The notes below the pieces were generated by a model. That model had not been told where the DNA came from. It saw only the letters and a program-made list of their open reading frames with translations, and ran no database searches. This document shows, in pieces, positions 20,292 through 61,026 of a stretch of 64,000 nt of DNA. The position numbers and the translations under genes were made by a program. Each line of letters begins with the position of its first letter. The stretch's first letter is position 1. This stretch comes from Phoronis australis. Taxonomy: Eukaryota; Animalia; Phoronida. The stretch covers positions 1 to 64,000 of the forward strand of contig NMRA01000901.1 in the NCBI GenBank assembly GCA_002633005.1. The letters are read 5' to 3'.

Positions 20292-20340
20292 ATGGCGACC
20301 ACCGAGACGGGTTCTATCGTTTTTGCATGTCTTCTAATAT
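20292..20340 (+). CDS. Gene B candidate exon 1: signal peptide
   Basis: ATG GCG ACC...CTA ATA T|gtaagt, 49 nt, phase 1; MATTETGSIVFACLLI joins CCILKILSA. Confidence 0.7.
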
Positions 20341-22195
20341 GTAAGTAATCGCATGTGCACGTATGCAATTAATTATCTACCGTGTTATTCCAGTTTTTTA
20401 CACAGCCTAAATCTATGAAACGCCACAAGTTATTGCGGCTCTAACCCTATTCTGTTAGTTGCAATTGATGAATATCAACTACGATATACATATAAGCTAG
20501 TTTTGTTTTCAGCAATAACGCTGCAAATGAGATTAACCAACAGCTAGAATGTCGTTTCCTCTTAAAAACGAAGTGATTTGTCCATTGTGTGTCCATTAAG
20601 GTTATTTTCACCTTCTTGCCATTATCACGGACCCCTGCGATCCTCCTCAGAGCATTTACATGTATAGCACACCTGCTGAATAACTAGCCATCATCGGATA
20701 TTGAATACAACTATAAGGGATGCAAAATACACCACGAATATCCTCGAAAGCAAATGTAGTGTACCATTTGTGATTTTAGGTACAGGTAGAGCACGTCTGA
20801 CTTTTCCCCGATTTTGATTGAACTCAGATTGTGCTCACCAACTCCCGCACAAGACTTCGCGAAATGGTCCACATTTTGCGTGCTTAATTTCAATAAGATT
20901 TAGAACATGGGCATAACTTACACGCATATGAGGGAAATGTGGTAGTACAAACTGTCAATATCAAATACAACGCGTCAAATGAGGGTAGTATTGCCAACTC
21001 AATGGAAAACAATAAAGCGATTGTGGAACGCAACTGCCCTGTCAAAATTTTTCAAAGTGTTTCAGGCGGGGGTAAATTGTAAAAATTGTTAACCCAAAGA
21101 AATAAAATGTTTTAAAAAATGTCAAGCATCGGCTAAATATGCAGATGAACAAACAGGTCCTTGGTGTGCAGGAACACGGGTTGGGATCCCAATACTTCAA
21201 GAGTCTCAGGTAGACTTACATGTACGTATATAGAGCAGATATTGTCGGACTTTACAATCGAGTTCGAGCTATCCAGTCACTAAGTTCACTGATTCTTGTG
21301 AGAAAAGTTGGTGCGCTGCCGTTCAAATGGAAAACTCTAACACTCTATTTTTCTTAACTATGGTTGTTTGCTGCAAAGAAGGAACCACAATCATATAAAA
21401 CGTTTGTTTCAGGTATGATTTGAAAAACTAGAAACCAACATGTGTGGCACTATTTCTTTCGGATAAATTTACATGTTTGCTCCCTCAGGGCGACTATGTT
21501 GTTACCTCTTCAGTATTTGAACTTTTATCTCGGCAACACATGCTTGAAGAAAAAAAGACGTTAAGAGAGACAACCTGTGTCACGATTAAAGAATTCTTCT
21601 GATGCAGCTCTACACTGAAACAATTTTGTCGTTGACAGCAAGATACCGTCCGGAAGTACTTGAACGGTTGTTCATGGTAAACTTGTTCGCGCGGAATAGA
21701 ATTAATCAGGCACAGTGTGTTGTTCACTAAAACAAGAGAGACATTAGAAAACATAAATACCGTTCACGAAGACGCTTGTATTTAGTAAAATGAAATTAAT
21801 TGCTCTATTTAAGTATCAAATATATTTACGATCGCCCTAGTATTTTTCACCTTGTGCCTGTTGAAGTGAAATTCTACTGGGTACAGAAACATGTAGTAGC
21901 GGTTCCTAAATGTACATGTATTGCAAATCCATTCCTCACACTTAGTAAAGGACAGTAAATAGCGTACTCCATTTCCCCACCTCTCTCTTTCCCACGATTC
22001 CTGGCTCATGTCCTTTCAAGTACATCCCTTCTCTTTCAATGACTCTACATTCATTGTATACCATAATCATGAACATCAAAGAGCCGCCCAACCCAAAGTC
22101 CTCCACTTTCCTTACCTGGGCTCTTTTCCCTCACCAACATTTTTTTCTCTATTTTCCTGATTCCTCAAAATGTAGTAAATGGTCAGCATTTATTG

Positions 22196-22436
22196 CATGC
22201 GCGCTTCCAGCCTTCAATATGGGATGGCTCGAATTCCTTTTGTTACCAAAAGAGCAGGCGGACTGATAAAAAAACGGCATCACCGCGATTTTGCGCGTTT
22301 GAGCATGTTTAGTGGACGTTTGCCTCATTTTCTTAGACTTTTTGTCTCTCAGAGGCGGACCTTTTTGCCCACTTCGCCAAATGGGGGGAGGGGCTCCTTC
22401 GAGCCTGCAGAGCCCAACCCCCTGGTTGCACGCATG
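22196..22436. mobile_element. MITE, CATGCG-ended family, 5-bp TSD
   Basis: Ends catgcgcg / cacgcatg; TSD tattg at 22191-22195 and 22437-22441. Confidence 0.75.
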
Positions 22437-22471
22437 TATTGTTATCGTTAAACTGTGAATCATCATTTCAG

Positions 22472-22541
22472 GTTGCATTCTGAAGATTCTATCTGCGTCG
22501 ACTATAACGTGTGACACGAAGTTCCAATACAAGCAAGATAA
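22472..22541 (+). CDS. Gene B exon 2: end of signal peptide and start of LCCL
   Basis: catttcag|GT TGC ATT...GAT AA|gtaagc, 70 nt, CILKILSASTITCDTKFQYKQD. Confidence 0.88.
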
Positions 22542-25129: not shown

Positions 25130-25202
25130 CACGGACTACGTCTGTCCCAAGGAAATGTGCCCCATGGACAAGCACGTGTATGGAAGTTATTATTACACAA
25201 GC
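25130..25202 (+). CDS. Gene B exon 3: LCCL domain
   Basis: cttttag|...|gtaagt, 73 nt, TDYVCPKEMCPMDKHVYGSYYYTS. Confidence 0.9.
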
Positions 25203-27317: not shown

Positions 27318-27466
27318 GATTCCACCGTATGCCGGTCAGCACGGCACGACGGTCGTATAATACCATGGAGTGACAATGACGCAGACAGGACGGTGAGATG
27401 GACCACCTGCACCACCCCTTCTGCGTATCTCCTGTCACTTCGTTACGGTGCTGGGAAGAGTTGGGG
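27318..27466 (+). CDS. Gene B exon 4: LCCL domain core
   Basis: tcaaaag|GAT...TGG GG|gtaagt, 149 nt, DSTVCRSARHDGRIIPW...YGAGKSW; 36/49 aa identical to gene A exon 4 by manual count. Confidence 0.9.
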
Positions 27467-30400
27467 GTAAGTTAGTAAAACTTTCATTTTCGAGAACACG
27501 TGTGTGTTTAGACATGGACACTTGTCTTTCTCCTGTATATTTGAAAATCCCCATAACATATAAAGCACATTTTCAAACCTGTGCAACGTAGGTGTTCAGG
27601 TTTGTGTTTTGGTGTGGAATGTTCAGATGAGATTTTATTACTCAGAATCTCTTATTTTGGTTTATGTTATATTGAAACAGCAAATGTTAAAACTCCATCA
27701 TCTAAAGCAAAACAGTACAATGTTGCGGCAAGAATAAATTATCCGATCAAAATGATTTTTCGCTCCTTTAGAGAATATCATTGTATTCACTATAACCACA
27801 GAAGGAAAAACATCATGCGCCATTGCATCGATGTATGAAGACGCTGAAACTTTGTCGAGACCAGTCATGTTCGTCACCTTAATGGGAAGCTTTATATCTT
27901 GATCATTCTTACAGCGGTTCTGTGTCTGCAATGTAATGGTGTTCGCCATTCTCTGTTTGTAGTCATGGTGTACACTAGAGGTATGTTGATAAAGATCCAA
28001 ATAAACTCCCGTAAGTCCGATTAAGGATTGTTTTTGGGATTTGGAAAGTACTGCCAGTTTTTTACTTGATACACTTTTCAAAAACATTCGGGATTCGTCT
28101 TTGTTTTTAGTGGTTATGGTTTTCATTACGTGCATAGTTACTAAATATTTTTCTGGCATTTACAAAAACTTTTAGAAGTATTTTAGAGTCAGACACATTT
28201 TGCTGGTTTCAGCAGAAATAATAGCAACAAACTCATACCAAGTATTTAATTCTATTGGAAAAGACAAAAGCTGATGCCTATTCAGTATAAGTTTATGACA
28301 TAATCATGTAACTTACATGTAACGAACGCGTCGTTCATCAAAAGAGTGTTGATGCAGTTTCCCAAATACTGTAGCCGTAAAAGAGTCGCAGTTTTAGCGC
28401 AATAATAATATAATAAACATTTAATTGTGATTTTTATTTCATAGAGCCGGTTCCTGAGATTAAAAGATGTTGATTTGGAGTTGATTTCCTGATATTTTGG
28501 CGTTTAGTAGCAGCTTCCAACGTGACTAAAATCGAATGAAACTTTGTATTTTTTTAAGAAGAGTCATACATTTTTTCACATCAAGTAATTTTGTTTCACA
28601 ATGTCAGTAACATACTTGCTCATCTAGTGGAATTTAGCAACGTCATCATGACTTTGTAGTTTTAGCGATTTGACGTCAAATTTCGCATTGTTAGGGGAAT
28701 ACGTTTTGGGTTAAAATACCTCGAAAATTGAAAACAATAATAATTTAATTGTCCAGTTCATAAAACACTGATCAATATAATATGAACAGCCCATTTTTCA
28801 AAAAAATATTTCAGTCAGTAGTTTAAATAGATGCGACTTTTTGTAAACATATGGAAAATTCGCACTTTTGTCGGAGGCGCCTTTTTTAAACAGCTGTGGA
28901 AGATACTAGGTAATTCTGCAACCCATATATGTTTTAGATTTTGCAGTAGGCAAATAATAAAATGCAAATTGTAAAAATATTAACAATCAATTAAATAGTT
29001 TCTAAGCCCCCAATAAAGTTTAAATTACACATTTAGAATGTTCTGTTATCATATATGTACATGTACTTCCTACCTGCAGGTATGATGTAACTTGTCCTTG
29101 CAAGATCTAGTCGAAAAACGCAAAGTTTACGCCTCTTAATTTCCACGACCCGCAATTTAGACCAAACTGATTATATGGCTTTTCATGACATGATTCATGT
29201 TATCAAAGTTTCCTAACATTTTGATTTAATCACTACATGCGCTTGTATACCACTATCTACACGGAGTTATCAGAGAAAAGTAAACGATCACGACGAACCA
29301 GATGTGTTTTGAATCTAATTCCAAAATCGCGCAATTAGACATAAATTAAACATTGATACCTTCATCTAGAAATGTTTTACAAATTCATAAAACACGTATG
29401 GTATTGTTTCCGGAGAAACGACAAGTGGTCAAATGTATTTGTCATATTGGCAAAATGTTCCTGGAAGACGGGTTTAGTTCAAAATTGTAAGGTTCATTCC
29501 ACTCCTTTGTCTCCCTAAACGTTTTTAATTCCAAGGTATTTGCTCTTGCAATTATGTCCCAAATATCCCCTGCCTCTATTCCATTGTTCTGGTTGCCGTA
29601 AAAAACACAATGTAAATAAAAAAATTGTTCTAAAAATATTTCAATCATTAGCTTAATGGGGTTATTCAGCAATCTTAACATTACTAAGGTCGCGCGTGTT
29701 CTAGTGGTGATAGATTAACAGCCTCGATTTCGCGAACCCTTTAAATACATGGTGAAATGGCTTGCAGCCGTGCCAGCTGAATCTGAGATCGTGTGAAAAT
29801 GGTGCTTCCATGAGAGGAAGTAAGCATGACCATATACAAAGGTAAGGTTTGTGATTATTTTAACGATAATTCCGTGTTTACAATACTGATACTTGGCCGA
29901 GGTCGACTTCCCGGCAGTCCCCAGTCGGTTTTTCGTTGTGGAGATTGATGTGTGTTACGATACTTGACGTACCACTCGGGATTTTTTCGTATATCAAAGG
30001 AGCATTAGTGGTTGGAATTCTTTCTAACAGGTTTAACGGAGACAGTTACATCAATCAATGCTGAAGTTTTATGCTATCAATTCGATATTGGTTAGTGAGG
30101 TAAGATTACAAAGCCCAAAAGGGTACATGGCAAATATCCGTCTATCTATTACGCGTTTGCCTGGAAATATGCCATGCCTGTTTTCAACTGACGTTTTTAG
30201 GTTTGAGGGCTAGTATCGTGGAGAGGAGATATGCATCGCTTCTGCAACAGTACCTGGTTTTAAGCAATTGACTGCAGATAGCTAACCAGCAAGATCTTCC
30301 TATCCAGTGCAGATCATTTGTTAAAACCTACTTTCTATATCGGAGACAAAGAACAAAGCCTTTGATAAGGGACAGGTATTTTTTAAAAAAGGTATGTAAG

Positions 30401-33234
30401 TTGTTTTGTTACTATACTTATTCAGGACCTTAGCACTGGATTGTCGGAGGGGGTTGGGGTTATAAAATTTGGTACACCTGAATGTGTGGAAATAACGGTT
30501 AATGGTGAGGTAATTCTTAACCTTCTTGGAGTTCTTTCACGTTTCATGAAACTGCTTTGCTGTACACTGTAAACCCCTAAATATTTATTACATTCTCTTA
30601 ATTCCCAACAACTGAACAGTCTTAACTCATGCCTTGAGCAAGTCGTTTATAAATTCATATGACCCTCATTTTGTGAGAAGTGCATTTTTGATGTGAACAT
30701 ACGAGTGAGGTCGTGTTTGAACATATGTTTCTTACCGCCAATACACAAACACTGGTGCCTTAGGATTTTTCTTAAAGAAGAAAAAAATCATCCATCATTT
30801 TTAAGAGACCCAAGTTTTCATATCCTCTATAAGAAGAAAAAAAATCTGAAAAACGGTTAACTCAGCCTTAGACAAGATATGTGGTTGAGAGGCCAATGAA
30901 TCTGTAGTCGGTGTTCATATTTGATAAAAGTATCAAAAATCAAAAGCTTTGAAAACGGGTAACAAAGGTTTCAAGTAGTCTCAAATAATTTGCATATTGT
31001 GAAGACAAGTGGTGCGTTTAAAGCATTGTTATGGCGGCCAATGTAAAATAAAGACGGACGCAGTCCTATACTTATCGATATTTATTAAAGTATATACATG
31101 TACACTGTAGCTTTCTTGGAAAAGCGATTATTTAATTTTGTGAGAAATTGTAAAGTAGTTACCATATCATGTTTTTGAAAAATGAGGACAACATTTTTGA
31201 CCAAACCTCACGTACTTAATCATTCATGTTTCAATATTTGTTCCAGGCTCATAAACATTTTTAAGGCCACTGCAAGCCGCAACTTAGTTAAGCTTTGTTA
31301 CTCTTTTCTCTTCCCAGTGCATGTTGTCCATACAGCAGCAGTGCTGCATGTCACAATGCACAAGAAAATGGCCCTGCAGAAATGTGAATCGCAGTACCTT
31401 ACGAAAATGCGCCAGTGTGTTTGTGTGTGAAGGGGAACTATACCTGACTGCTACACCAACCAGCTTCAGTGATGAGGATGCCCTTTCAAAGGCAATGAGT
31501 CACGTGTGGAGAACAATGGCTTATTTCATCTGCTGGAAGAAACATGAAGGACTGAAGCTAAAGAAGACCTAGTAACACTCTGGCGTAGTTCAGGGTCAGA
31601 TTTTGGGCACAAAGCGAGTCAAGTGATTTGCTGTTGTGTTTACCTCCAAGGATCTACATTTAATTGTGGACTTATTGAACCTGAATGAGTTAACGTGAAG
31701 AAAATCCAAGTGCTTAAACTGGACCTATTATACAGGCGCTTCTAAAGGCCATTAGAACGCTATCCCAGTGAAATGAAAACCAAAAGCACCTTGCATAAAT
31801 ACCTGTCCTTTCTCACTGAGTAACATCAACTTTTCTTTTCAGAAGAAATGTTTTAAACTAATGGTAAAAACTGTTCAACTTGGTATGCATTATGCAAACA
31901 TGACATTAAGGGACTGCGTCGATTGTGCATCGACTGTCTTATTGTCAGTAAAAAGCCCGTTATTATTACGCTTTGATGATCGAATATTTTTTTATCAACA
32001 GCCTGCAAGTTTGTCACTAATTATTCAAACCACAATATTTCTTCAGTTTTAAAGCATCATACAGTGCAGTTGTATTGCTTCTTTATCAGGCTGTAAAGAT
32101 TACCGATTACGCTTGAGAAACACTTTCCTGATGACCTAAAGAAATGTCCCGCAACAAAAACAAAGTATTCCCTCTTATTGCATTTGATTTGTTTATATGT
32201 GAAACTAATTTTAGATTTTGAACATTCATAATTTTGTGTTAACTTGACTCCCAGCAAAAGTTCCACATGCAAGCAAAGTATGATTTCAAACGGAGCTAGC
32301 CTGATAAGAGTCCGCTATGCACAAGATTGGAGCATAAGCAATAATCAGTGTATTTAAAACAAAATGGCAAAATGAAAAAACACATACGCACAACAGAACA
32401 ACATTATTTGTTAAAAACAATTGTAATTTTTCCCAATCAGGGATAGCAAGGGCTGACTTTTTTAATTGAAAGGTTCAATTCCCTCATCTTATTGCTGAAC
32501 GACTGCTTTTCACTTTGGCGAGAGGTAAAATTGGGTAAGGCGGCAGGTTTCAGTCGTTTTCTCTCACCTGTAACAGAATATTCAGAGACATGTTAGCAAA
32601 TTATTAAAGAAAACAAAAGACAAAACTACTTTTGTAAGGCAGAACTTACTTGACATTTCATCTTCATATTGATACAAAGACACTAATATTCTTTTTACCC
32701 AAGCCTTATTTAAGATCTGAATTAAAATACGTTTTTCTGATCTCAACAAATACAAACTCAATCTACGTGTAGGTGTCAATATTTATCACAATGCAATGTT
32801 ATGAATTTACTGAATACCTAATTCACGTTAATTCGGTAACTATAATCTGGCAGTCCCGGGGGTGGGGTTTGTTATAGAATAATGAAACCCACTCATCTAG
32901 AGAAGTTGATTGGATATAGCGTGGCATTGTAAAGTAACTGCTGTGAAAAAGTCGCCATTGACTTCTGAGTGGCACGTCCCATACCCGTCTTGTATTGGTA
33001 GCACTCCCGCCAGGACAATATGTGGGTATGTGGTGCTAGCCTAACTGGGTGCCGAGTGAGTTTTTGAAGAGAAAAACTTAGTTCCACTGAATAAACACGT
33101 TATTTAGAGGGCTATCTTGTGGGGAAAACATCACTGTACGATGTCGATAGAAACTTGATTGCTAAAAACTTACGAAGTAACGTGATCATGTAGTCTCTCA
33201 AAGGAAGACACACACGGGGTATGAGGCTACGCCA

Positions 33235-33475
33235 TCCACTCACTTTCTGTCACTTGGTTGACCCGTTTGACCGCAATTTTCCGCGCCTGTAATATTCTTA
33301 GGTGTTCTGGGAATTTGTGACCACCTGTCGACGAATTACACCAGGTAAAATAGCAACAATAAGGCTTTGCGCGACGAAGTATTTTGATAACAATTTCGTC
33401 TTTTTACCAGAAGACAGCGACGCATGCGCACTTCAATCACCACTAGTGCAGCAGCGACACCACGTCGAATTGAAA
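33235..33475. repeat. Dispersed repeat, inverted copy of 27005-27250
   Basis: Reverse-complement similarity to 27005-27250. Confidence 0.8.
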
Positions 33476-33719
33476 GTGGGTTTTCAGGAGCCATATAAGT
33501 GTTATACCTTTGCCAGAGACCTCTTTGTTTAATTGGCCAAAAAGGAAAAAATTAATTCGGTGAAGGGCGAATTTTTTCGCTATTTTGCAGTTGGAAAAAC
33601 TAAAATAGGAAACCTAAAAAACAACAATGTATTAAAACAGTTGCGAACACCCACGAATTTTACTTGAACATTAAGAGGGACGTGGATCAAACATGTAAAT
33701 GTAATATTCCTTTTTGCAG

Positions 33720-33769
33720 ATTTGGCGGCGTGTATTCTTGCAATCAATTTGTTTCAAGTAGAACAACTG
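33720..33769 (+). CDS. Gene B exon 5: end of LCCL domain
   Basis: ttttgcag|A TTT GGC...ACT G|gtaagt, 50 nt, FGGVYSCNQFVSSRTT. Confidence 0.85.
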
Positions 33770-34039
33770 GTAAGTAACCGATCTGACACATTTTCATAAG
33801 TTTAAATATCGCATCGAGTGTTCTGCGTTTTGTGTTTTTTCTTTGTTAAGTTGTATTAAAGCTGGATTTAAAACGTAATAATATTTTTTGAATTCACTGT
33901 AAATCGAGCATTACTTAAGTCGGCTATGAACCGGAGCTGTGCTAAAAAATCGAAATTTCAATCTAAACCACTTGCGTACTCAATTTTGTCACAAGCTACT
34001 CAAAAACTATTATTAAAATTTCTTGGTCGATTGACACCG

Positions 34040-35400: not shown

Positions 35401-35930
35401 TCTACAGTTTTCAGGAGGGATATCACATGGCATACTCCAGAGAATCTACCCAAGCAACAGAAAAGCCCCTCACATGTACGGTAAACCTAAGATACACAAA
35501 CCTGATATGCCAATGAGACCAAATATAAGCAACATTGGTTCGCCTTGCCACCAACAAGCTAGAATCCTCAACAGCAAGATATCCCCACTAGTTGTACATG
35601 AAATCCCATGTAAATGTGCTGGCTCATATATTGGTGAAACATTAAGACCACGGGAGAAGAGAATTGCTGAACATAAGAGGTGTTGTAGAGAGGGTAATAC
35701 CTGATCAGGAGTAGCAGGAGACATGTGGTCGAAACAACACAATATCCATTGGAATAACAACCGAATACTTGAAAGTGAAACACGTTGGACCAACATAAAG
35801 ATCAAGTAAGCCATGCACATTAATGTACAAGGCAGGTTCTTCAGTCAGGCAAACAAACAAACGAGTGACACCTGGCTCAGTCTACTTAGGAAAGTTTAAG
35901 TACAGTAAAATTTCCTCTAAATAAATGAAT

Positions 35931-45500: not shown

Positions 45501-47338
45501 TTAATCGCCTTTGGTTAAAATTCATATTGCAAAATAGATGCAAACTACCAGGAATTGCCGAACGTATGAGCGCTGCTGTTCTTTATGTTTTGCTACCGGG
45601 ACACGGCAACTCGCGAATTACATACACCCCCAGCAGTTGGCGTGTGTCAATGTAACAGGAGAATAATCACTTGTGAAATGAAATATTTTCAATTATTAGA
45701 CAAAACGTATTTTAGAACGTGACAAAATGTACAACAGATACGCCGAGGAGTGTAGTGAACTGTTGTATATAGGCGGAATGTCGACGATGGAAACTCTTAG
45801 TGTCAGAAGGATGACGCAGGGTTTTTTATACCGATGTCAAAAGAATTTCAGAAAGATCTTGTTGTTTAGTCTTGCTTTAATGACTCTTACTTCCAACTCA
45901 GCAACAAATCTAAAATGGCGGGGTAGCACTCCGCTCCAGATCGTGGCACGTGAGCCAGAATGTTATGATATTTGTCCTACGTACGCATTTCTATACGATT
46001 CAGCAATGTGTACTGGTGACTTTGTAATAATGTGTTTTAACAATCTAATACGTGTTTAACACCTTTGATACTAGGGGTTTGAGCTGTATTACTTGTTTTC
46101 CAATGAATATGATCAATTCATTTTATATTAAAGGCGAAATATACATGAACGTGGTGTTAGTCATTCCCTGATGCTGTACACGTTTCACCATAGTTTTGGC
46201 CTAGTGGTTGACCGAGCGTCATTGTTTTCCTTCATATCTGTGCTTTCACCTTATCGTCGTCCCATGCCAGTGTCATTGCCGTTTAGCGGATAATTGGGGT
46301 TGCACCTCTTATATCGAACTTGTTGATCGTTCCTTGTCTGCGAGGTCGTGCACCAATGACTCTGATTTGCCATCAATACACCGCGTTTTCATCGACCAAA
46401 GATTTGTTGGTAGACCTAGGCCTACTTGTTTCAGAAAACTCTGAACAGGCAGTAGTGCCCACGTCAGGATTTTCCACAAGAAAACATACTGAAAGTCTGA
46501 TTTCTGCTGACTAATGGAGAATGGTAACACACAATTTTACATGCATTCTTTATATTGTTTAACTAGTACATATTTTGCATAGCAGGTACAAGCTAGGCTG
46601 TGCTTTTACGCGGGGCCATTCAATCGAACCCCCGACTTTCCCCTGCCTAAATGTTTCTGGTATACATGTAAAGGTGTACGACTTCCGAGTTTATTCCAAT
46701 TCGGGCATTGTATAGGCTTCTACATATACTTAAAAGTGCAGGGTTTGCTTTTAGTCGTCAGGTTGAGCTATTTGTGCCAATTTGCATTCTATTACAAAGG
46801 AACCTGAACGCTAATTCCTCGTCTCTGTGATTATAATTAGAAACATAACATACAGCGATGACAAGTAGGTTGACAATTGTCAAATGTTTTTAAGGACGAG
46901 TTTGAACCACCGTAAATCACTCAACCGTATCTAGTAAGAAACGCCACGTGACGTTAAGAAATAACACTGCATTATGCGACAATGCGAGTCCCCAACGTAC
47001 GTCTATAGTGCAAAGGTCACCCATTTACAGAATTTTTAGTTTCTGATATACATGTACATTAGCAAAGTTAGGACCATGCTAATAATCTTCAATTTGGAAT
47101 CACCCTTATGTTATAACCAAAATTGAGCATAATAATTGAAAATACACTAGGGTTTATAGGAACGTTCTTGTTGTGTGATCCGTGGCAGAATTAGGAAGTA
47201 CATTAGCTTCCACCTTTGCATTTCAAGAAATTGTAACAGCGCGGATGCTGCTTCATACACATCTCCTTAAATCGCTGGTCACCTAGAGCTGAATCATCAA
47301 TTGCTAAACGCCATGTGTGATATCCATTTCCAATTCAG

Positions 47339-47545
47339 ACGACTGCAAAAACACACTGGATGGTAGAGACTACATGGGAACAGTCAGTGAAGGTAGAAAC
47401 GGTGAAAGGTGCAAAATGTGGAAAGACACAAAATATACTCTTCTCCCAGAGAATTATTGCCGGAATCCTGATGGCGAGCCAAATGGACCGTGGTGTTACC
47501 CTACGACTGGAGGATGGGAGTATTGTGACGTGAGTCTATGTTCAG
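47339..47545 (+). CDS. Kringle-domain exon inside the gene B intron that splits the F-lectin domain
   Basis: caattcag|...|gtatgg, 207 nt, phase 1-1. Reads DCKNTLDGRDYMG...C.MW...NYCRNPDGEPNGPWCY...WEYCDVSLC with all six Cys. Membership in gene B is uncertain. Confidence 0.85.
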
Positions 47546-50500
47546 GTATGGAAATATTGTACAGGTGGTGACTAAAGTCTATGTTGCGAGTCACATTTGA
47601 CCCCCGAGTAATGAAACCACGCAGCAGTGATGCTATTTTTTCTCTAATTGATTAAGACCTTGGTATTCTCCTTTAACACAAGTAACAATGCATTTAACAT
47701 TTCATCAACCCCCTTTACCATGGGTGGTTAGAAGTGTTGGTGCCACTAGTGACAGTACACGCCAAATGAAAGCAACCTCTTTCTTACAACAATTAATACA
47801 ACGACGGTTATGTTTTCGGAAAAAAGAGGAGAATCAAATACATTTGTGCCACTTTCAACACTCGTAGTCAAGTGAACGTGCCTTCGTTTGTGACATAATG
47901 TTCTTTTGAAGGTACATTGATTGATGAAAGTCCTTTTGCGACAAGTCATCGAACTACATGTATTGAGAAGCCTAACGGTTGAGTCTTGGATTTTCCATAA
48001 CTAGCAACGATGTTTTATTACCAAAAATACGCTTTGTGTTTATTAATTTTCTCTACTGATAATACAGTTCTCGATTTTATACTAAGCCATCAATTTACAC
48101 CTTACATAATACTTGAGGTACTACTTTCAATTTGGGACATTGTGTTTATTGGAAATTCAAGCACAAAAAGTTCGATAGACTCAGTTGCTTGAGATTGTGA
48201 AATTTGAAATCGTGGTCAAACAGCAACTGCTGAAAACGCAATTATGCATCAACATTTTCTGTTCCAAACCACATCTTTTTGGTCGTTATAGTCAGTGCGT
48301 TGTATTGACCTTTCGTTTTCGGATTGGGTTTTCAAAATATACATGTAGCTAAAGGAATCGAAATGGAATGTATCTTAGCGCTGAAACTTGAAGCACGTTG
48401 TCCAAAGCCAATTACGTAACTCTCTGTAAGAGGAGGTATATGGGCAACAAGTCTTCATAGACCATAGGCGGATTAAGGAAGGGGTTGCGGCAGCCCCCAA
48501 TTCAGACATTGTCCGACTCCGACAACGGGCGCAATCGTAACGGTAACTATTTGGCTAAATATTGCTACTGCCGGTCGATGTGTGCGTGGTATCCCAGGCG
48601 ACTGCCACTGTCGCTGCGCCATAGCAATCAATTTCCGTCGTCTGCTTAACTGTGCTAAGAAAACTATTAAGACATGTTTTCGGAAGCTGAGTGACGATGA
48701 AGAAACACAAACTGAAATGAATCCTCAGAAGCGCATAATTCGCTCTTTGTGTAACATTTAAATTCAAACGATTCCCCTTTGCAACCGCATGGTTAAAGCC
48801 AGTGCGAAAAGTGTATTTGTTCTTTTGGGCAACTTAAACAGGTTAGCGCGAACGGTGTGAGCCATAAGTACATGTATGTCTCTTAGCATATTATTTTTAG
48901 TGCATGCGTGATGGTGCAATAGAAGAACACGCGCCATTTTGACCAAAACGACGTGAGTTCTAGTAGGTGCAATGTTGACAAATTTTCCGTTGTTTCACCA
49001 ATTCTCAGTGGTTTTTTACTCTATTATATTTCAAGGCCCGGTTGCATTAAAGTTGTACATGTACGCCGTAATTGCAACAGTGAAGTCGCATTATCACGCG
49101 TCACTTTGTCATTGTTGAATAATGCCCTGACGTCATGCAACAATCAAACTTATCCAGCGGATAACTTTTGAAGCTTTGTGCAGCTCAACCCTGAAATTAA
49201 GGAAAATCATTGCTTATGGAAGAAAAAAATAAAATTTTCCTCTGGGCGTAAAGGGGAAGCCACTCCGACACCCCCCATTCGGCGCTGTTCGCATCTAGAT
49301 ATGTGCTTCGTGCCAATGTCTACAAGACAAAATATTTGGGCCTCTGATGATATGATAGATCTGCCATAACAGACAATGGCATAAATTGCGTGAAACTGGT
49401 TAGCGTTTTTTGATCAAATATTAGAGCTTGGGTACAACTTGCAAAACTTTCATGAAGTTTTATGAACTCATGGCTACTTTTTAATTCCTGACATTCCCGC
49501 ATTCGCGGAATAAAAGTAACCCTATTCGGTAGTGTGATGGTTAACAAGCAACAGGATTATGAATTACCGAGAAAACTGTGGGGGTAAAAATGGTAGAGAA
49601 ATTGCACAAAGTCTTTTTTGTTGGTGAAAGCCTTTCGAAAAAACGCTGTTTTTTACTAGAAAGCTGCTACCATTTTTATGAAATTCAATTAAGATCAAGT
49701 GTATATTTTTTATAAGTTTACATGTAATTTTTCATGACGTTGCATTACATGTAGTCACAGTTATGATGAGGCGTTTAGACTTTGATAACGGCTATAACAT
49801 CTTTTTTCAGTCATCCTATAGTGCCATGGTGATCCGTCATAAATGACAGAGTTGGTTTTGTTTCTAGGTACACATGTCAAAATATAATTTAAGTATATGT
49901 AGCATGATGCCAACAACCTGAGCTGATGGTGGTTTATTAAGACACATTTCCCAAGTACCACGATTAATTGAATATGATTATCAACACACATACTGTGTGA
50001 CCAGGATCCTTCTGAAGATTATAATGTAGGAGTTCAGTGGTTGCCCTTCGAGCTTCAAGTTTATTGTTCAGCAAGCACAAAAGTTCTGTTAAAATGCAGA
50101 CGTGGCGAAAGTGCACGTGTCTGGTTTTGTTCAGGACCAATACTTACAATGTACGATAGATGAGATCGGAACTATGTATATACATGTAGGATTATTGAAC
50201 AGATTTTCAACTTACGATTTTGAAAATTTTAACCGAAGTATCTATAACGAGTAAGTTCTACTATGATGCTCACTTTCCGTTAAACTCAAGCGCCATAGTG
50301 TTTAAGTATCAGTCCACGGATCCACCGACAACTGTGCAGCCAACAAGCGGCAAGGTGGGGGGTCAGCCATTCAGATCCATGTTTAGTTTGATAGATTACA
50401 TTAGGGATGAGAGAAATTGGGTGAAGTATGACACCACAAAGTTTGGTGGTTTAGAAGATACAAGGGGAGTGTTCTAGGGGGCAAAATGAGGCAATTCCTT

Positions 50501-53500
50501 GATGTGGAATTAGTCATTTTTTAACCAAATTCTCTACTCCAGTTCCTGCTTCAAACAGAATCGTTTCTGAACAATTTTGATATTACATGATAGGTTCATG
50601 ACTCAGTAAAAACGTCACCGACAGTAAATTATCTGTTACCATGGTAACACTGGAACTGTTTCCGTGGAGGTAAATTTCATTCTTGTGAAAAACCAGCAGT
50701 AAGTTGTACCCTTATAGCGAATCTGCCCCCGCGAGAAAACTAAAAATAATAACATGGACATGTAGAAGACTCCATAAAAACTTTGTCAGCCCTTCAGGCA
50801 GGCTTGTTAATAGGTGTCTGAAATTCACTATTTTCAGACCGTGTATGTAATTTGTCATGTTAAACCAGTCACTTGTTGTGCGTCGTTTCTACGCATTAAA
50901 ATGCCGTGTTATAATACAGCAGTTAAAGATTTGGTTTTGCTTAAATGTTTTAATTAATTTCAAGGAAACTAGCATTTCCAACTAAAATATGAAATTATAC
51001 TAAATTTGTTCATCCAACTCGTCTGAATACCATACATAGCTTACAATGCGTTGGTTGAATGGTGGCCATCTAATGTGCGGGTTTGCGAATTTATCTATTT
51101 ATCTGTCACTGCCAGTCGCATGGAATGTGGTATTTCTACAAATTGCGGAGAGAAAAAACTTTGGAAACTCTTTGGAAATGCACAAAGAGAAGAGCCAGAC
51201 ATTTGAGCACCTTATAAGAGTAAGGGGAGGTGATGTGGAGGTGGAACGTGTCCTCCTGAGAAGTAGTCTGTCTCAGTGTCTGCCTCGGAGGCAGGTTTGC
51301 AGCAGGAGCTACATAATCTGCCGTAGAAGATTCACTTGCCCGAATCATGTGTACAACCTTGGAGATATATTGGCGTCGCGAAAGACACTGAGTAGGCCTA
51401 CATCCACTGCACACTAGAGGATAAATCTAATAGAGGTCTGCAAAATGACCAGAGACGTTAAGTAAAGGTTCAACGTCTTGCTTCGTGTGAGCTCAGGTAG
51501 GAATCACCAAACCCCAGGGTCTAACCCTGAGGAATATTTTTAGAAGCACGTCATTCATGTAAAAATACTTTTATTGACACACCGTGATTACTTGTACATG
51601 TAACTTGGGCCTTATTGCACAATCACATCTTATTCAACTATGTTGATGTTTATGCAACTACATGTATACATTGGCAGGTAGTCATCATAACTTTTCATAA
51701 CAACCAACAAATGTGTAACATGACTTCTGCCCATGAACTACTTTTAGAGACTAGGGAATATGTTATGTTTGCCAATGAAGTTCTTCGATTATGAAGTTAA
51801 TTAAACATGCTGAAGCCGTCAAAAATATCAGTGCCTTCACTTTAGCTTGGTATTAATATTTTTTGAGCCAAAATGGCCACATTAAATTTAATATGTTTAT
51901 TTTTTTCATTAATACAACTTTAGGACTTAGGAAAGGCTTATACTGAAGAAGTGGCTTCTGTTGAAGCTGGAGGCCTGCCGATTATTAGTAAAGGTTGGGT
52001 AAGGAAAAGTTCGCAACCAGCCAGAAGGTACCCTTCTAGACAACTAAGTGAGGGGGCTAGAGAGAGAGGCCGAAAAGTCTACTCCCAGAAAATATGTCAA
52101 AGATAATTTGTAACTTGAGGAACAAGTCGGGGGAAAAGTATTTGCCAAAAATTACTGGCTTATACCACAAGAGGTCCAAAGTAATTTGTTGAGATAGGCC
52201 ACACTCAACAAATGTGAGGAAACTGGGACAGAGGAAGTGGAGTATGCATTGGAAGAAGCAATGTGCGATTGTCAAGGATGTAGCATTGTAAAAACTCAAA
52301 GGGAGGAAACAGTACAGTGCCTGGACCTGTAGATACTCTGGCTTATCTGCTAAATCCAGCGGTGGCATTATTGTGTCAGCACAGCTGTGTAGGGAAGTAG
52401 GCTTGTGTGTTTCTGACCACTGTACTGTTCCTTTTCCTTGAAGGTGCCTAATTGATCTGAATTAATGTTTCCGCATTTTATTTACCATTATAGATTTTTG
52501 TTTGTAAAGGGTATATATTACTAAAATTTGAGCACATGTTAGGCTGGTTATGTTAACTTATCTTTCTGCCTGGGTTATAAACCTTCTATCCATGAGGTAA
52601 TAAGTTTTGATTTAGACCATTTACGTCTATAAACTTTGCTCAGTTTGTTCCTTATCCAGATGGGAAGCGATTTCTGGAGACCATGCTGTGTGTTTAAAAT
52701 CGCACACTATTAGACTGGTCTCTAGCAATTGCATATTGCCAGATCTTTCAGATCTTTCAAGGTTCAGAAATTGCTCAAAAGTGACCTGAAAGTAATACCT
52801 ATTTCATGAAGGTAAAAATGTCTAAATGAAAAGTTGTTTGATGTGATTTTAAGCGAGTTTATATCCACTTCAAATGATTTTTGTTGCAGTACTGAAAAGT
52901 ATTGGCACATTAGCTCTGGTGGCTCCTTGTTTTTTTTTGGCAAATTGACCATTTTATGGTTCCCATGGGCAATTTTGTTACTGATCTAGTATGTATGTAC
53001 AACTGTAATCGTAGGGAAATTGTAATGCAAACCATGTTGCAAAAGTATTTTTTCATGACCATTTCATTGTAAAAATGCTGCCTAATTGGAACCAACAAGC
53101 CAATTTTTCATTCTGTGGTGGTTAGTTTTGATAAGAACATTGTCGTGGTAAATACAGCTACCTCAAGTTTGTGAAGAAGAGATTTCCAGTGTTGTCAGCG
53201 ACATTGCGAAATCACTTTTTCCCAGTGAGACTACATCACCTTAAATGTAATTCCTTGACTTTGTGGGCTTTGTGTGGTTGACTCTGTCCTGTAGCAATTG
53301 GACTGTCGAAAAGATCTACAAGGCAATTTTTATTAGAGTCATAACATTTGCACTTTTGACTGTAAATTCATCTTTGCGTTGTATAACGAAAACATATTTT
53401 GTAGTACACAAGTCTCTGGTTGGTATTTTATTTTTTTTCACACGGAAAATTTTGAGGTAGGCAATTTTCCAATGAGATAAGATGTGTGATCTTCCAATAA

Positions 53501-53695
53501 GTGATATCTTTTAAAAAACCTGTGCAGAATTTGATTTTTACTCTTCATTTAAAGGAGAATAAATACGTTAACCTGCATTGTCTAGAAATTTTACTCAAAC
53601 TACATATTACAGGGTTGGGGATTGGAATCTTAATACAACTGAGTCTGAACCCGTACCATGAGCAATACAACACAATACACGGATATAAACATTTG

Positions 53696-54867
53696 CAGCC
53701 GATTTCATAAAGGTGGTTTAAAGTTAAACCTGGTTTAAACTGGACTTAGACCAGGTTTAATAATAATCTGCATTTCATTAAGATGGTTTAACTTTTAGAC
53801 CAGTGGTCTTGTAAAACCTGGTTGAACTCCAGTTTAGACCTGGTCTAAGTCAGTTGTCATTTCACCAACGAGGTCTATATCCTTTAGACCTGCATTAAGA
53901 TCTTAAACTATGTTTAACTTTAGACTTGGTCAGACCCAGGTTTAACTCTTAAATATGTCAGACTTGCATGGTATAGGTACAACTGAACGATGCCACGGTG
54001 TGCAATTGCGACGCAGTTTTAGAGCGGAAATGGACTATTTACAATATTCAGGTTTACTACGACATGAGATCAAACGTAGCAGGGGCGGATCCAGGATTTT
54101 TTAAAGGGGAGCGGACGGTCAAGGACTTTTTGAAAGGGGGGACCAAGTCAACAATTTGAAAATTATAGATTTGATATCATTAAAATCAAGGGAAAAAGGG
54201 GGCTCCGAACCCCTTGACCCCCCTGGATCCGCCTATGCGTAGACCAGTACGTGCTGGAGTGTGTCCTGCAGATTCCTCAGAATACGACTGGTCGAGCAGG
54301 TCTCATCGTCGCAAGCCCTACGGATTTGACTTAAGACAGCATCCTCTGATTCTTCTGACTAAGTTCCACCTCCACTGTTCTCCGATTCAATGTTGCCGGG
54401 AAGGGGTCTTGCCCCCCCTTTGGCCGCGAAAAATAAACACTAAAATAACACGGAAATAAATTTGGGCATTTATCATTTTACATCTAATCATCAGCATCTT
54501 CTTTAATGTGTGTGTGTTGGGCACAAAAATAACATTTTTCCTCATGAGAAAAGCTTTTAGACCTTTGTCGCTAATGTCTGCACTGATTCTACTGGTGTAT
54601 GCCATTCTATACCCACGTGATCAAGGTTTCATTGAAACACTTCAATAGTTTCTTTGTTGGGTTTACCCAGCTCGACACAGTTGGGTGCCTTTGATACTTT
54701 AAACCTGGTTCTATTGAACCAGCTCCCTGGTCTAGCAAAACCAGGCTTTCAGACTTTTAAACCATGTTGGTGAAATGCAAGTTAGGTCTAAAATTAGACC
54801 AGGTTTAGGAAGACCAGGTTTAAGTCTTAAACCTGGTTTTGTTAAACCACCTTTATGAAATCGGCTG
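53696..54867. mobile_element. PIF/Harbinger-like non-autonomous element
   Basis: Perfect 26-bp TIR cagccgatttcataaaggtggtttaa; 3-bp direct repeat ttg on both flanks; subterminal (a)aacc(a/t)ggttt / gaccaggt repeats; Myb/SANT-like remnant RQRSKSFSHEEK on minus at ~54570-54535. Confidence 0.85.
54080..54237. mobile_element. Nested MITE (hAT-like ends, 5-bp TSD)
   Basis: caggggcggatccagg / cctggatccgcctatg; TSD cgtag at 54075-54079 and 54238-54242. Confidence 0.85.
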
Positions 54868-56604
54868 TTGGTGTTTAGGCTCCACGGAAAGGATTCGTGT
54901 TCGCGGTAATAGTTACTAAGGTGCGTGGTCATTGTTTGTGGATAATTTGGGATTCCTCTTTTGTGGTCATCCACGGTAAACCTGGTCGCATAGAGAACAA
55001 TATATTAGCATCTTCATTGTTCCCGTTGTTAAAATAAAGATAGAATGACGACCACTTATCGGCAACGGTCTGATGTACGCAAGGTTCTATATCCATGCGA
55101 CCTGTGTTGTTACATCCAACAATGACACAACAGAGGAAAGCAATGATAGGACCGATGGACGAAAAACATGCGACGAGTTTCCACTGACAGTGGTGGAGTT
55201 TGTCTTGTCATTCGAATGTGTTTTAGAGAACTGCAAACCCGGTATGCGGTCTTTTGTATTAAGTCGTGCGAAAAATTGCGGTCATGCCACCAAACTTATC
55301 ATTCATTTGATATTACAATGCATTGCATGAAACTTTGATCAACAGAACATCTGTGTGTGAAGAAATACCCATGAGGAAATTGCAAGGTATAACAACTGTA
55401 AATCAAAATAAGCTACATTTGTCGAGTTCATGTCTAACCCTGTTCACTGTGGAGGACATAATCGGGCTTTTTACAAAATGGAGCCATGTATGGTATTTAG
55501 TGGACAAATAGGCCTAAGTGGTAACTAGTAAAACATTCAAAACATTCAGGAGGAACAAATTTGTTGCAAAATATCGAAAAACATTAAGGACAATCTCATT
55601 TTACGGTGTTCACGCATCGATCTCAGATATATGAAAAATTCTCATTTTAGTACATTTGAGGTACCAAAATGTATAATTAATGAACAGGCTGACAAAGTTT
55701 TTATTTTATGCAATAACAGTAAAATGTTGTGTCAACAATTTGACCAAGTTTCATTCTCGTAGCAGGGGGACAGATTTGGTAAAGCAGTGTAATGAACATA
55801 ACCTCAAAATGGCTTAACGGGGCAGTGTAGTAAAACTACTAAATGAGGGTGGTAAATCGCAATCGTGTTTCAAGACATCTGTGTAACAATCTATAGGCAC
55901 CACTAAACAATGCCAAGTGAATAATAGTTCAATAGCTTTCATTCAAGGAAAAATAAACAATTAAAACTGGACAGTTTTTATACTGTGAAAACATGGCTGC
56001 GAAGCCTAAAATGTGTTTGAGCCTATAACTTGAAAAAAAACGTAATATTTTGAGGAACTATTTTACCGCTGTTTATAGATCCCATAGGACTACCTATGTG
56101 CCAAATTTTATGAAAATCGGCTGAACCCCACCTTGCCGCTGGATGGCTGTTACTCTCGTGGACTAGTACTTAATTGCGCTTGCGCTCAGCTGTCATGGCG
56201 GAGCATAACTGGTCATTCTATTTATTGTCTTTTGTCTTTCACTGTACATGTATGTTTTAATATTTAAGAATTACAACTCTCAATTTAAACAAATATAACC
56301 GCATGCGCTGCATATGCATTTGAATGAGTGTTGCGCTGTATGATACTTGTCCAATAGAAACATTTCGTTTAGATCGTAATACCTTAAAGATTTTTACGAT
56401 TGGGGAGATCAATCGCCTCAAAACGGAGAATATATTGCACTTAGAAGTAAACTTCATATGGGACTTTGCTATCAATTTGGAAATAGTTTTGATTTTCGCA
56501 CTAACGAGCTCATTATACATATTGCGGTAGTAAAACATGTAATAACCAACTCAAGTGTAGCTTGGTATATTATCACAACCAAAATACCCGCCTATGTACT
56601 CAAG

Positions 56605-56850
56605 GTCTGACTGAGTCGCTCAGAGATTTCCAAGTTCGGGTCTCAAATACAAGTGAAACACCACCAGCGACCTCTACTGACGTTCTGTGCAAACACTACA
56701 CCAACACCATCAGTGACGCCACTACTGTGTACATAGCTTGTGATCGTCCAGTGAGTGGGAGATATATCTACATCACCAAGAACGGCAACAGCAAATCAGA
56801 AACGCTGTCTTTATGTGAGGTGGAAGTATTCGGGACCCCAGCGCTTGCAG
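56605..56850 (+). CDS. Gene B exon: C-terminal half of F-type lectin domain
   Basis: ctcaag|...|gtattt, 246 nt, phase 1-1, LTESLRDFQVRVSN...C...CDRPVSGRYIYI...LSLCEVEVFG. Confidence 0.9.
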
Positions 56851-57396
56851 GTATTTATCCGAGACTGGTTTGCCTGGATAAGGACAAGCCGTGAATGATC
56901 GAAAATATCATTTATGACGTAATTTTTGGAAGTTAAGTACGAAAGTGACTTTGCAAGAAGGACTCGTACAAAAAAAAACTCTGGCTAGAATGTTAAGAAA
57001 TTGATTACAAATTCAAAATATAAGCAACACTAGAACAGCATCAGGAAAAGTATCATGACAAAACAGGTTAGGTACATGTAGGTAATTATAGAAAAAAGAA
57101 ATGGTGGTATAGGTTAGAATAGTGCACCGTATCACAAAAAGGAATGAATTCTGACCAATGATGTACATGTAAGAGTATGGTACATTTTGTAATAATACTG
57201 AAGTGAAAAAGTGAATTAAATGGGAAGTGAAGTAAATGATTCCTAGTTTCATCGACTTCTATTCTATAGAATGATTTTGCATGAGTAAGAGCTTTATGCT
57301 ATTAAGAAAATGGGACTTCCCTGATTATTTTTGTTTAGTGTGTGTACAAATACATGTATAACACATAGGTTTGTCCACATTGTTTCTATATTGTAG

Positions 57397-57642
57397 CCTC
57401 CAGCACACTCACTACAAGAGTGGACGTGGGTGATGGAGTGACACTAACATTTGATGGGCTAGAGCCATCTGGTGTCAGATGGCAGAAAGACAGTCTTGGG
57501 TTTTACGCCGAGGTCTCCATAGTTGGATGGAATGACAAGCTGGCTAACACAATTGATCCAGTTGAAGTGGGTCATGGCGGAGTGTACACTATATACAAAT
57601 CGCCTGGAAATGTTCTTGGCATCACCCGCTTGGTCGTCAGAG
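57397..57642 (+). CDS. Gene B exon: Tie-type Ig2 domain
   Basis: ttgtag|...|gtaggt, 246 nt, SSTLTTRVDVGDGVTLTF...RWQK...GGVY...ITRLVVR, resembling Tie2 TLTMTVDKGDNVNISF...RLIVR. Confidence 0.88.
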
Positions 57643-59571
57643 GTAGGTTTGAATTTCCTTGTTTCTCGTCATAAAGCTTACTTTTTTCTAGGAAAGTGTG
57701 TGACGTACATGTACGCTATTGAAAATCTCGGTTATGTAAATGGAAGGGAGCAGGGTTGCATACACACCATATATAATCCATCGCCAAACATCAACAGCAA
57801 AATCAATTGCTAGTTTAATTTGGTGACTGTTGAAAGTATCCGGTCATAGTCTCTTTCTAAAAGAATAAATTAATATTATTTTTACTGAGTCTTCAAATCG
57901 CTTTTCACATCCAGTTCTTCAGTTTTACAACAGTACTCCTCAACGTTCTGATCTGAAAAACAATTTCTTCGACTGAACACAGGTTCTTATCACCTGTAAG
58001 CTCGGTACAACTGACTGTTATTCGGAAACCTGAAGCAACGAGATTTTAACAACATGTTGTATCTATTGAGACAACACGGATATACATGTATCGTGAGCTT
58101 TTTGATTGCTGCATTACACACGTCACAAAAATTGCCGACGGTATCCTGACAATTGCTTCCATAATGCAGTTGTGGAAGGATGGAATTCTGTTTGGGGTGG
58201 GTGGGGTAGCACGTTTTGCAACTAAGTGGACAACTGATATGATGTTGAACGAACAGTGCACAAAATTATGCTTGTGTTGAGCGTCACTGGCTCTCAGCTG
58301 TTTCTCATCGTGTCAGGTCCCTATTTTTTGCTAATAGCATATATGTAAATCACTCTCTTCGTAAATGTAAATCATGTGAAATTATTATGTAAGAGTTGTT
58401 CCTTTGAATTTATAACACAGAATAGAATTTCTCTTCAGATTGCACGCGTACTAACTTTGCTCTGTGAAGACAGTATAGTTATGCAAAATGAAGATCATTG
58501 GTGTAGAATGTTGGGAATATTTATATGGTCATCCTACCACTCCCCAATGTCATCACTCAGCTTGAAATGAATGCTTCTGATACTACTTCTGTCTTTTCCA
58601 TAAAATACGAAAATTCCTGTTTTATTTTGCTTTGTTTGCCGATAAGATCATGGAATGACATAGTTGCTGCGCCCAAACCTACATGTATTCATGAGAAAGC
58701 ACCTGACGTAACTGGCTACGGTGTGTGAAGTGTGTTAAACTGTGTTGTGCAGTGCTGTTTTTGGTCCGTCTTTTGTTAGAGCGCATTTGTTTTCCGCTGC
58801 TGAAGTACATGTATGTAATGCTGATGTTTGTCTGTTGGTTTTAGGCATGATTTGTACATGTATCTCGATGACTCTCCGAACAAAAATGAGCCACGTGGAG
58901 GCAAAGTACCTGGAGTCAGCTAAGATTTAGGAACCGTTTTTTTTCCGCCTTAACAAAAGGAATTTTCATCGCAGTTATTATTTAATTGAGACATTTCAGC
59001 TGTCGTGTGGCTGCTTTTCCAGGTTTTAGGGATGTGAAACCAAAAATACTGTTGTCATACATCACCCATTTTATAACACCACGATCTTAGGCTGCCGGGT
59101 TAGTCGCACTATCCGTTTCTAAAAAGAACAAGTTGTACACTCGTGAACATTGTGATAATAACCAACAGTCCCGAGGATTGTTGTAATTGATGATCAAAAG
59201 TCCAAAATGTGCTTTAAATGATAATCATATTCTCATGAAATCACATCAGATTATATTTTTTATATTCACAATATGCTATAGGTTTTGCTCACAAATATAA
59301 TTATTCTAGTTATCACAAGACCTTTTTCTTCACAAAGTATTTATTTTCAGAGATTAAGTTGCCATAATTTCCAATCGTGAATGTTTTCTTCCTCACACTC
59401 TTAGTTTCTGCCATCTACAAAAATTTCGTGTCCTTGTGGGGGGCTAAAATCTTTCCCTACTTATATTCATTAAGTTGCGTGATGTGTTCAAATAAAGATG
59501 TCATGCTGATGTTCAAAATGTTCGCTGTGGCTGTGGTTCCTTGACGAAGCGTTCCATTTGTGTCGTTGCAG

Positions 59572-59703
59572 TATGCCCAAGGGATAAATACGGCGTTGAT
59601 TGCACTGAGGATTGTCCACAATGTGAGAATGGAGGCATTTGTCACGACATCACTGGGGAGTGCATCTGTCCACCTGGGTTTATGGGGCACAGTTGTTCTA
59701 TAG
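59572..59703 (+). CDS. Gene B exon: Tie-type EGF repeat 1
   Basis: gttgcag|...|gtgaga, 132 nt, CPRDKYGVDCTEDCPQCENGGICHDITGECICPPGFMGHSC; not in the ORF track. Confidence 0.93.
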   Translation, partial: YAQGINTALIALRIVHNVRMEAFVTTSLGSASVHLGLWGTVVL

Positions 59704-60701
59704 GTGAGAACTTTAGTTAGCAGGTTTAAAATTCACCGCGTGGTTTAAGTTTACCCAACACACACACCAGTCGATCCATTCAAACCTATGGAACCATAGC
59801 ACAAAAGTGTTCTAGAGGAGAGAATTTGAGTTATGGGTTTAAAAAGTCGTTTGAATTCATCATAAAAACAATAAAAAATCACCGATCAATTCATTCAAGT
59901 ACTTAAAGAACGAAACACGTTTTGATAGATTTGTGGGTTTCCTAACGTGTGTTGCATGCAATAAACTGAATATTAGAAATCTTCCAGCTGTCAATATTTA
60001 AATTTTGTTTTTGGATGGCAGCAATGTAAAAAGGGGCTACATGTACGCCTTCGCTTTGTGTAACTCTCTCGCTTCAACACCTGTACGTGGAATGGGCCGA
60101 ACACAGCTCGTCATAAATATAGGCCAAAGCGAATGAACGACACTACATGTAGTTCTTGCAATTTGTTTGATTTTCTCAACAAAGTTAGTAATTTTGAAGG
60201 TTAGCTCTAAGACCAACATGTTAAATTTTGAAATTTGACCAATACACAATGTGGTTTGAGAAAAAGAAGGATCAAGAGAAAATTGCCTCTGTAATTCAAA
60301 AATCACATTAACTTGCGCACTTAAACTGTTTTGATTAATCGTCACATGAAGATCACATTTAATAAATTTACAATTTTACAAGGGTATACTGTATATTACA
60401 GCAAGCGTATCACTGGTCCTGACACAAGTTTAATCAAACCATGTGCGCCAGATAAGTTTTCGCTTTAGTACGATCAGGTAACGAACACATGGGGTAGTTT
60501 AAAATGCATATTATTACAACACCGTGTTTCATCGACCACGGAAACGTATTATTACCAATTAATACAAAGAAAATGATTTCTCAGAACCGTCAAAATGTCC
60601 AGATATGCATGTATAGATAGCACGTGTTTGGGTAGTCAACTCCTTGTATGACATCGTCTACAGCTGGCTTCCCACTGAAAATGACTAATTTCTGTCGAAA
60701 G

Positions 60702-60851
60702 GTTGTGGAGGTAATCTGTTTGGAAGTGACTGCTTATCGAAGTGCTCCGAAGTGGACGATGAGCAGGGATGTCGGGGGAAATATGTGTGCACGATAGATC
60801 CATACGGATGCTCCTGTGTTACTGGATTTAAAGGAGTGACTTGCAGTGAAG
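60702..60851 (+). CDS. Gene B exon: Tie-type EGF repeat 2
   Basis: gaaag|...|gtaaga, 150 nt, CGGNLFGSDCLSKCS...GCRGKYVCTIDPYGCSCVTGFKGVTCSE; DPYGCSC is characteristic of Tie receptors. Confidence 0.93.

Positions 60852-60994: not shown

Positions 60995-61026
<32 letters not shown>

Follow-up and report, generated by a model that had tools for sequence, protein, structure and literature searches.

A putative Tie-like receptor gene of Phoronis australis with a kringle nested in its F-type lectin domain

Tie-type genes and the nested domain of gene A

Outside the vertebrates, Tie and Tie-like genes have been described in the coelomocytes and the axial organ of the sea urchin (SpTie1/2 and SpTie-like; PMC6494969) and, across several studies, in coelomocytes of sea urchin and starfish (PMC12113024 and PMC13409769, together with PMC6494969), and lineage-specific Tie duplications have been reported for the sea squirt and/or amphioxus (PMC4898815). 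Here, we analyzed 64,000 nucleotides of animal-type genomic DNA of Phoronis australis (contig NMRA01000901.1, positions 1 to 64,000; about 38% GC), which we refer to as the window. Its plus strand carries a gene, in the following gene A, whose product, judging from its sequence, likely represents the extracellular part of a receptor kinase of the Tie family and is probably a cell-surface receptor. Like the vertebrate Tie1 and Tie2 (TEK), gene A has an immunoglobulin (Ig) domain followed by two EGF domains that match EGF1 and EGF2 of Tie2 in register; in contrast to them, it has an LCCL-like region, an 88-residue domain, an F-type lectin and a kringle in front of this Ig domain and no recognizable Ig1, and EGF3, Ig3, FN3, the membrane span and the kinase are not part of what the window holds of the gene. 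We liken SpTie1/2 and SpTie-like to gene A as Tie-type genes, independently of their domain lists.

The notable feature of gene A is the kringle, which is nested within the F-type lectin domain. The two lectin halves are encoded by exon 7 (37243–37482), which contains the calcium motif, His265 and Arg295, and by exon 9 (56605–56850), which provides the C-terminal half of the same domain, and they match complementary parts of the Pfam family PF22633, namely positions 1–41 and 46–89. Both halves also match the solved lectins FBP32 and AAA, with E-values to FBP32 of 1.4e-15 (exon 7) and 1.7e-5 (exon 9), in agreement with the F-type lectin proposed in the first-pass annotation. We built a profile from 10 intact F-type lectin domains, which stem from 5 proteins. 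With the kringle removed in a script, the halves aligned to it as one domain with 82 bits, whereas the actual product including the kringle gave two lectin matches with 39.9 and 33.8 bits. The structural cysteine pairs C263/C438 and C396/C413, which correspond to 50–146 and 108–124 in AAA, are kept, and one of them spans the insert. Together with the profile match in two pieces around the kringle and the calcium motif, this assigns the domain to the F-type lectin fold. Thus, gene A shares with AAA (1k12) and MsaFBP32 (3cqo) the fold sequence, the calcium motif, both structural cysteine pairs, the His and the first Arg, but differs from them in having a kringle exon of 69 residues in place of the Asp-Cys-Cys-x-x-Arg loop. 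tblastn and a Pfam scan of open stretches ruled out that one of the large introns conceals a second lectin half; among the 88 plus-strand open stretches of at least 40 residues in 37952–56607 (13 overlapping a retrotransposon being omitted), the kringle was the sole Pfam match.

The kringle exon (exon 8, 47339–47545) surfaced in the 19 kb that separate exons 7 and 9 and had been left out of the previously proposed domain order. It encodes a compact domain of 69 residues in a single, symmetric exon (phase 1-1) and matches PF00051 with an E-value of 1.5e-13 and 51.3 bits, compared with a curated cutoff of 34.3, which identifies it as a kringle with cysteines at 301, 323, 339, 351, 361 and 366. 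Six cysteines and the core motifs are shared with the kringles of plasminogen and HGF, but the domain is about 13 residues shorter than those of plasminogen and lacks the Arg that precedes the final aromatic motif. Since this Arg has a role in lysine binding, its loss makes lysine binding by the gene A kringle doubtful.

The insertion point lies four residues past Arg295, the equivalent of AAA Arg79, in the loop of complementarity-determining region 4 (CDR4). In AAA, Arg79 and Asp81 lie in CDR4, and fucose is contacted by His52, Arg79, Arg86 and the Cys82-Cys83 bond (PMC5712786); the sugar motif of F-type lectins is given as HX24RXDX4(R/K) (PMC12221842). The loop R-x-D-C-C-x-x-R-L is present in 10/10 of the intact domains of our profile, with Arg, Asp, Cys-Cys and second Arg all kept. 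Gene A retains His265 and Arg295, which are 29 residues apart, but has Gly in place of Asp, no Cys-Cys and Ser at the second Arg, so that its sequence departs from the fucose-binding motif, and Asp and Cys-Cys are absent and Ser occupies the second-Arg position even when the kringle is removed. An N-glycosylation sequon at 296 directly follows Arg295 and is kept in a neighboring paralog (paralog B, see below). As Asp, Cys-Cys and the second Arg are gone and a kringle sits in the binding loop, the lectin of gene A is unlikely to bind fucose in the canonical way, and we infer that its barrel is folded but its canonical site disabled. The degenerate lectin of Drosophila furrowed/CG9095, likewise part of a mosaic protein, also deviates from the sugar motif (PMC12221842).

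None of 11 full-length lectin-like domains, found in 6 of 150 kringle proteins, was split by a kringle (0/11), which is a small sample biased towards multi-kringle proteins. A partial lectin match in one of them (P0115) was ruled out as a second split domain, with no kringle following it. None of these best 150 kringle proteins (from HMMER, mostly multi-kringle) matched the LCCL, 88-residue, Ig or EGF parts of gene A by BLAST. Another protein of this set (P0125, 1559 residues, unrelated) combines kringles with a weak LCCL match and ephrin-receptor-like cysteine repeats. Prokaryote genomes searched with a lectin half gave no match, and homolog searches among longer proteins with exons 6, 7 and 12 were empty, which is weak evidence. 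A description of this architecture or of a kringle within an F-type lectin was not found in the full-text literature by a shallow search, which covered neither supplements nor domain-architecture databases; the excerpts of PMC8662651, PMC13228809, PMC5336234 and PMC7217437 held nothing on an architecture of the gene A type. This is in line with the earlier impression that the architecture is unfamiliar.

Splicing and the remaining modules

The reading frame of gene A consists of 12 exons joined by GT-AG introns and is open over 625 residues, with all introns in phase 1 from exon 5 onward. All eleven exons of the first-pass annotation were located with GT-AG introns and an open frame, and the modules are bounded by phase-1 introns, as predicted by the exon shuffling that it had invoked. 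We used RNA data from three stranded raw-read runs (X1, X2 and X3; about 18–19% of each run) and one contig set (X4), which were mapped to the regions 27401–47400 and 44001–64000. These comprise 8 of the 11 gene A introns (introns 4–11), introns 1–3 lying outside. For all eight covered introns, two runs gave GT-AG joints of the expected orientation, each with at least three start sites. The numbers of reads (X1/X2/X3) were 12/3/0 for exons 4-5, 19/7/2 for exons 5-6 and 6/5/0 for exons 6-7. The kringle is joined to the N-terminal lectin half by 6/9/0 and to the C-terminal half by 18/6/0 reads; further downstream, the lectin is joined to the Ig exon by 12/9/0, Ig to EGF1 by 47/11/0 and EGF1 to EGF2 by 23/13/0 reads. 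Exons 4–12, from the LCCL region through EGF2, are one spliced gene, as had been proposed, and the idea of separate genes fails for these exons given the RNA joints at all eight covered introns. A Thr/Pro linker exon near 50313 was ruled out, as RNA joins the kringle straight to exon 9. Expression of gene A differed among the runs, being on in X1 and X2 and near zero in X3; the tissues of the runs are not stated.

The Tie-type part begins with exon 10 (57397–57642), an Ig domain at the position of Tie Ig2. Its first Atlas match scored 0.90 and 10/10 named matches belonged to the Ig clan, while the E-value to Pfam Ig_2 was 0.24. Together with the RNA joint to EGF1, the Atlas Ig clusters place an Ig domain directly before EGF1, as in Tie receptors. 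A specific likeness to Tie2, as expected from the earlier designation as Tie-type Ig2, was not detected: a search against the Protein Data Bank (PDB) gave no Tie2 match for exon 10, and the AlphaFold2 model was of low confidence (59.6), so that a fold search on it was uninformative. Exon 10 is a putative Tie-type Ig2 by its position and apparent likeness only. For EGF1 (exon 11, 59572–59703), the best PDB match was Tie2 189–230 (E = 6e-11), and for EGF2 (exon 12, 60702–60851) it was Tie2 235–278 (E = 8.5e-7; next family E = 0.019). Both thus align to consecutive residues of Tie2 in order and in register, which identifies them as EGF domains of the Tie type and confirms the EGF pair of the first-pass annotation. 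Gene A likely continues beyond the window, since exon 12 ends at a GT donor, RNA depth is low in 60852–64000 and this interval contains no EGF exon. Transmembrane, EGF3, Ig3, FN3 and kinase exons are absent from the window.

At the 5' end, exon 1 (20292–20340) provides the start codon and a hydrophobic, signal-peptide-like stretch with a hydropathy peak at residues 6–23, and it was the best signal-like first exon ending in phase 1 within 16200–22400. Exon 2 (22472–22541; GT-AG, in frame) encodes the end of the signal peptide and the start of the LCCL-like region, which continues through exon 3 (25130–25202) and exon 4 (27318–27466, with the core motif) and ends with exon 5 (33720–33769). Exons 2 and 3 are conserved in paralog B. 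Our local LCCL profile was built from 137 domains cut from 126 bacterial loci, which were fetched by an LCCL core motif; 20/20 sequences checked of the 137 belong to PF03815, and the profile is biased to the chosen motif. It matched gene A with 31.4 and paralog B with 32.3 bits over positions 7–59 of 108, including exons 3 and 4. None of 1000 shuffles per paralog reached the real score (best 10.2 bits vs 35.7). The C-terminal half of the domain gave no alignment to the profile in either paralog, exon 5 lies beyond the match, and Pfam detected LCCL in no single exon. Due to the motif bias and the unaligned second half, "LCCL-like" is a fair label for a region that had been annotated as an LCCL domain of four exons, as the match spans about half of the profile.

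Exon 6 (36333–36596) encodes the 88-residue, cysteine-free domain that had been annotated as Ig-like (Ig1). Its acceptor is set by RNA, which uses 36333 and rules out an upstream acceptor at 36276. The domain was not recognized as Ig by Pfam, PDB profile search or Atlas, and the AlphaFold2 model had a predicted local distance difference test (pLDDT) score of 41, made without a deep alignment. It is conserved between the paralogs with a ratio of nonsynonymous to synonymous substitution rates (dN/dS) of 0.28. Its identity as Ig1 is thus neither shown nor excluded, which leaves the proposed placement of the lectin "between Ig1 and Ig2" unestablished.

Origin of the nested kringle and competing readings

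We consider gene A a Tie-like receptor that was assembled by exon shuffling and contains a nested domain. In the reading that we favor, with a probability of roughly 0.58, the product is the ectodomain of a receptor kinase of the Tie family; fucose binding by its lectin has probably been lost, and the lectin serves as a platform presenting the kringle. Class 1-1 domains, including the kringle, as a rule insert into existing phase-1 introns (PMC3927616), and the gene A kringle may have entered such an intron by exon shuffling. The two lectin halves would be able to refold, as the structural cysteine pairs and the calcium motif are kept. The ends of a kringle are tied by its first-to-last cysteine bond, which is why the insert would fit into the loop without breaking the barrel. 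The lectin would then be a scaffold displaying the kringle towards a ligand, which may be a protein or part of a microbial surface. Binding at the LCCL/kringle end could cause clustering via the Tie-type Ig-EGF stalk and activate a kinase whose exons lie past the window edge. Class 1-1 modules are well known to insert internally (PMC3927616), and the FN2 inserts of MMP2 are a comparable case. In contrast to these and to the kringles of plasminogen and HGF, the gene A kringle lies inside the binding loop of another domain and not between domains.

Several observations weigh against this reading. Since His265 and Arg295 persist in both copies of the gene, some sugar contact could survive. In PMC5712786, the intron of a teleost lectin sits elsewhere in the domain, which leaves an ancestral intron at the insertion site unsupported. 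Short reads show neighboring joints and not a single full-length molecule. Skipping of the kringle exon keeps the frame, and its rough depth in X1 was 22, compared with 31 and 46 for the neighbors, so that a skipped form is conceivable, with the limit that each mapped region holds only one of the flanking exons. Among the joints listed, a variant at 36600–37251 (6 and 3 reads, with different letters at the exon ends) and another at 56828–57395 (4 reads and an X4 contig, with different exon-end letters, in frame) suggest that some reads stem from a divergent allele or from a third, closely related paralog. Finally, membrane span, Ig3, FN3 and kinase are absent from the window, and we infer the status as a receptor kinase.

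A Tie scaffold that senses glycans or microbes, as proposed in the first-pass annotation, with a lectin that works via a non-canonical site or via a kringle-skipped form restoring a plain lectin, appears unlikely to us. LCCL domains can bind microbial surfaces, as in factor C and cochlin, and the LCCL-like domain of gene A could by analogy do so independently of the lectin; however, its match is limited to positions 7–59 of 108. The retained His, first Arg, calcium motif and structural cysteines would suit a working lectin, as would the symmetry of the kringle exon, the skipping of which keeps the frame and places an Arg codon where the two flanking exons meet. Moreover, deviations from the motif may alter specificity instead of abolishing binding (PMC12221842). 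However, a form without the kringle would still be devoid of Asp and Cys-Cys and carry Ser at the second Arg, and the RNA shows the kringle to be included on both sides. The nested kringle thus argues against lectin-based sensing, the earlier glycan-sensing proposal is weakened accordingly, and the gene A product is at best a candidate pattern-recognition receptor.

Next, the Tie-type ectodomain might be attached to a non-kinase tail, i.e. belong to a receptor phosphatase, a membrane-anchored decoy or a secreted protein, which we likewise rate as rather improbable. Nothing past EGF2 is visible in the window, a gene that gained several 5' modules may also have an altered 3' end, and receptor phosphatases combining lectin and EGF domains are present in marine invertebrates. 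Against a non-kinase tail, Tie2 is a better match than other EGF families for both EGFs, which also follow its order, and the non-vertebrate Tie genes described in PMC12113024 and PMC4898815 are kinases.

An extension of the platform idea, which we regard as speculative and improbable, is that the symmetric kringle exon is a splice-switchable or paralog-swappable recognition cassette on the lectin scaffold, by which a duplicated family could derive varied specificities from one site. That the architecture is a hand-splicing artefact of separate or chimeric genes is highly improbable: the kringle lies between repeat-filled introns of 9–10 kb, cross-mapping of reads from close paralogs is possible at 90% likeness and the RNA test spans introns 4–11 only, but this is opposed by the correctly stranded joints at 8/8 of these introns, seen in two runs and with at least three start sites each, by the exactly complementary lectin halves and by paralog B, which repeats the first seven exons in the same phases.

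Gene A combines an RNA-supported nesting of one mobile domain in the active loop of another, with a matching loss of binding residues in the host domain, on a Tie-type scaffold, and it illustrates how an invertebrate Tie-like receptor may switch its ligand. It also cautions that domain lists naming such genes fucose-sensing lectin receptors can err. With the symmetric kringle exon and the neighboring paralog, the switch is directly testable. The surprise is limited, as the mechanism, exon shuffling of class 1-1 modules, is familiar and many receptors of invertebrates are shuffled.

Paralog B and repeats in the window

Self-BLAST revealed paralog B on the minus strand (1812–18620), which was absent from the first-pass annotation. 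It is inverted, head-to-head with gene A, and leaves the window after the N-terminal lectin half, with an intron placed as in gene A. Seven exons are visible (18575–18620 as a tentative first exon, 13269–13338, 8609–8681, 7625–7773, 4337–4386, 3093–3362 and 1812–2051), and they are open over 299 residues with the same phases as in gene A. The two copies are 75% identical, with a synonymous divergence (dS) of 0.57 and a dN/dS of 0.29 over 272 codons. In each of the three shared modules, dN/dS is 0.28–0.32, corresponding to purifying selection, and for this reason both copies look functional. A local duplication under purifying selection fits the pattern of amphioxus EXTK and of the expanded tyrosine-kinase receptors of Apostichopus japonicus, although membership in these groups needs a kinase, which would lie outside the window. 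Large expansions of kinase receptors are described for several lineages (PMC3342872, PMC5638244). If the first exon of paralog B is right, the start codons of the two genes are about 1.7 kb apart, with a possibly shared promoter region. An assembly gap of 90 N (16035–16124) lies within the first intron of paralog B.

Rfam gave no match in the window. The gene A intron between the N-terminal lectin half and the kringle contains, on the minus strand (39075–41771), an open reading frame of 899 residues for the reverse transcriptase of a non-long-terminal-repeat retrotransposon (RVT_1, E = 2e-35; zf-RVT, E = 5e-7), and a similar element is present in broken pieces inside paralog B (about 4596–6453, minus strand). 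RNA reads map to both strands of the intron at about 50300–56600 and carry numerous mismatches and indels, as would be expected if other copies of a repeat are transcribed. A 1.2-kb piece with inverted ends of 36 nucleotides is located at 53686–54877, and many reads are without it. The palindrome TACATGTA occurs 47 times in the window compared with 1.8 expected from shuffles, and is a genome signature of several marine invertebrates. Intronic inverted-repeat pairs of 230–290 bases (33233–33464/27009–27249, 34048–34274/35899–36132 and 35015–35308/35598–35887) resemble nested transposon ends.

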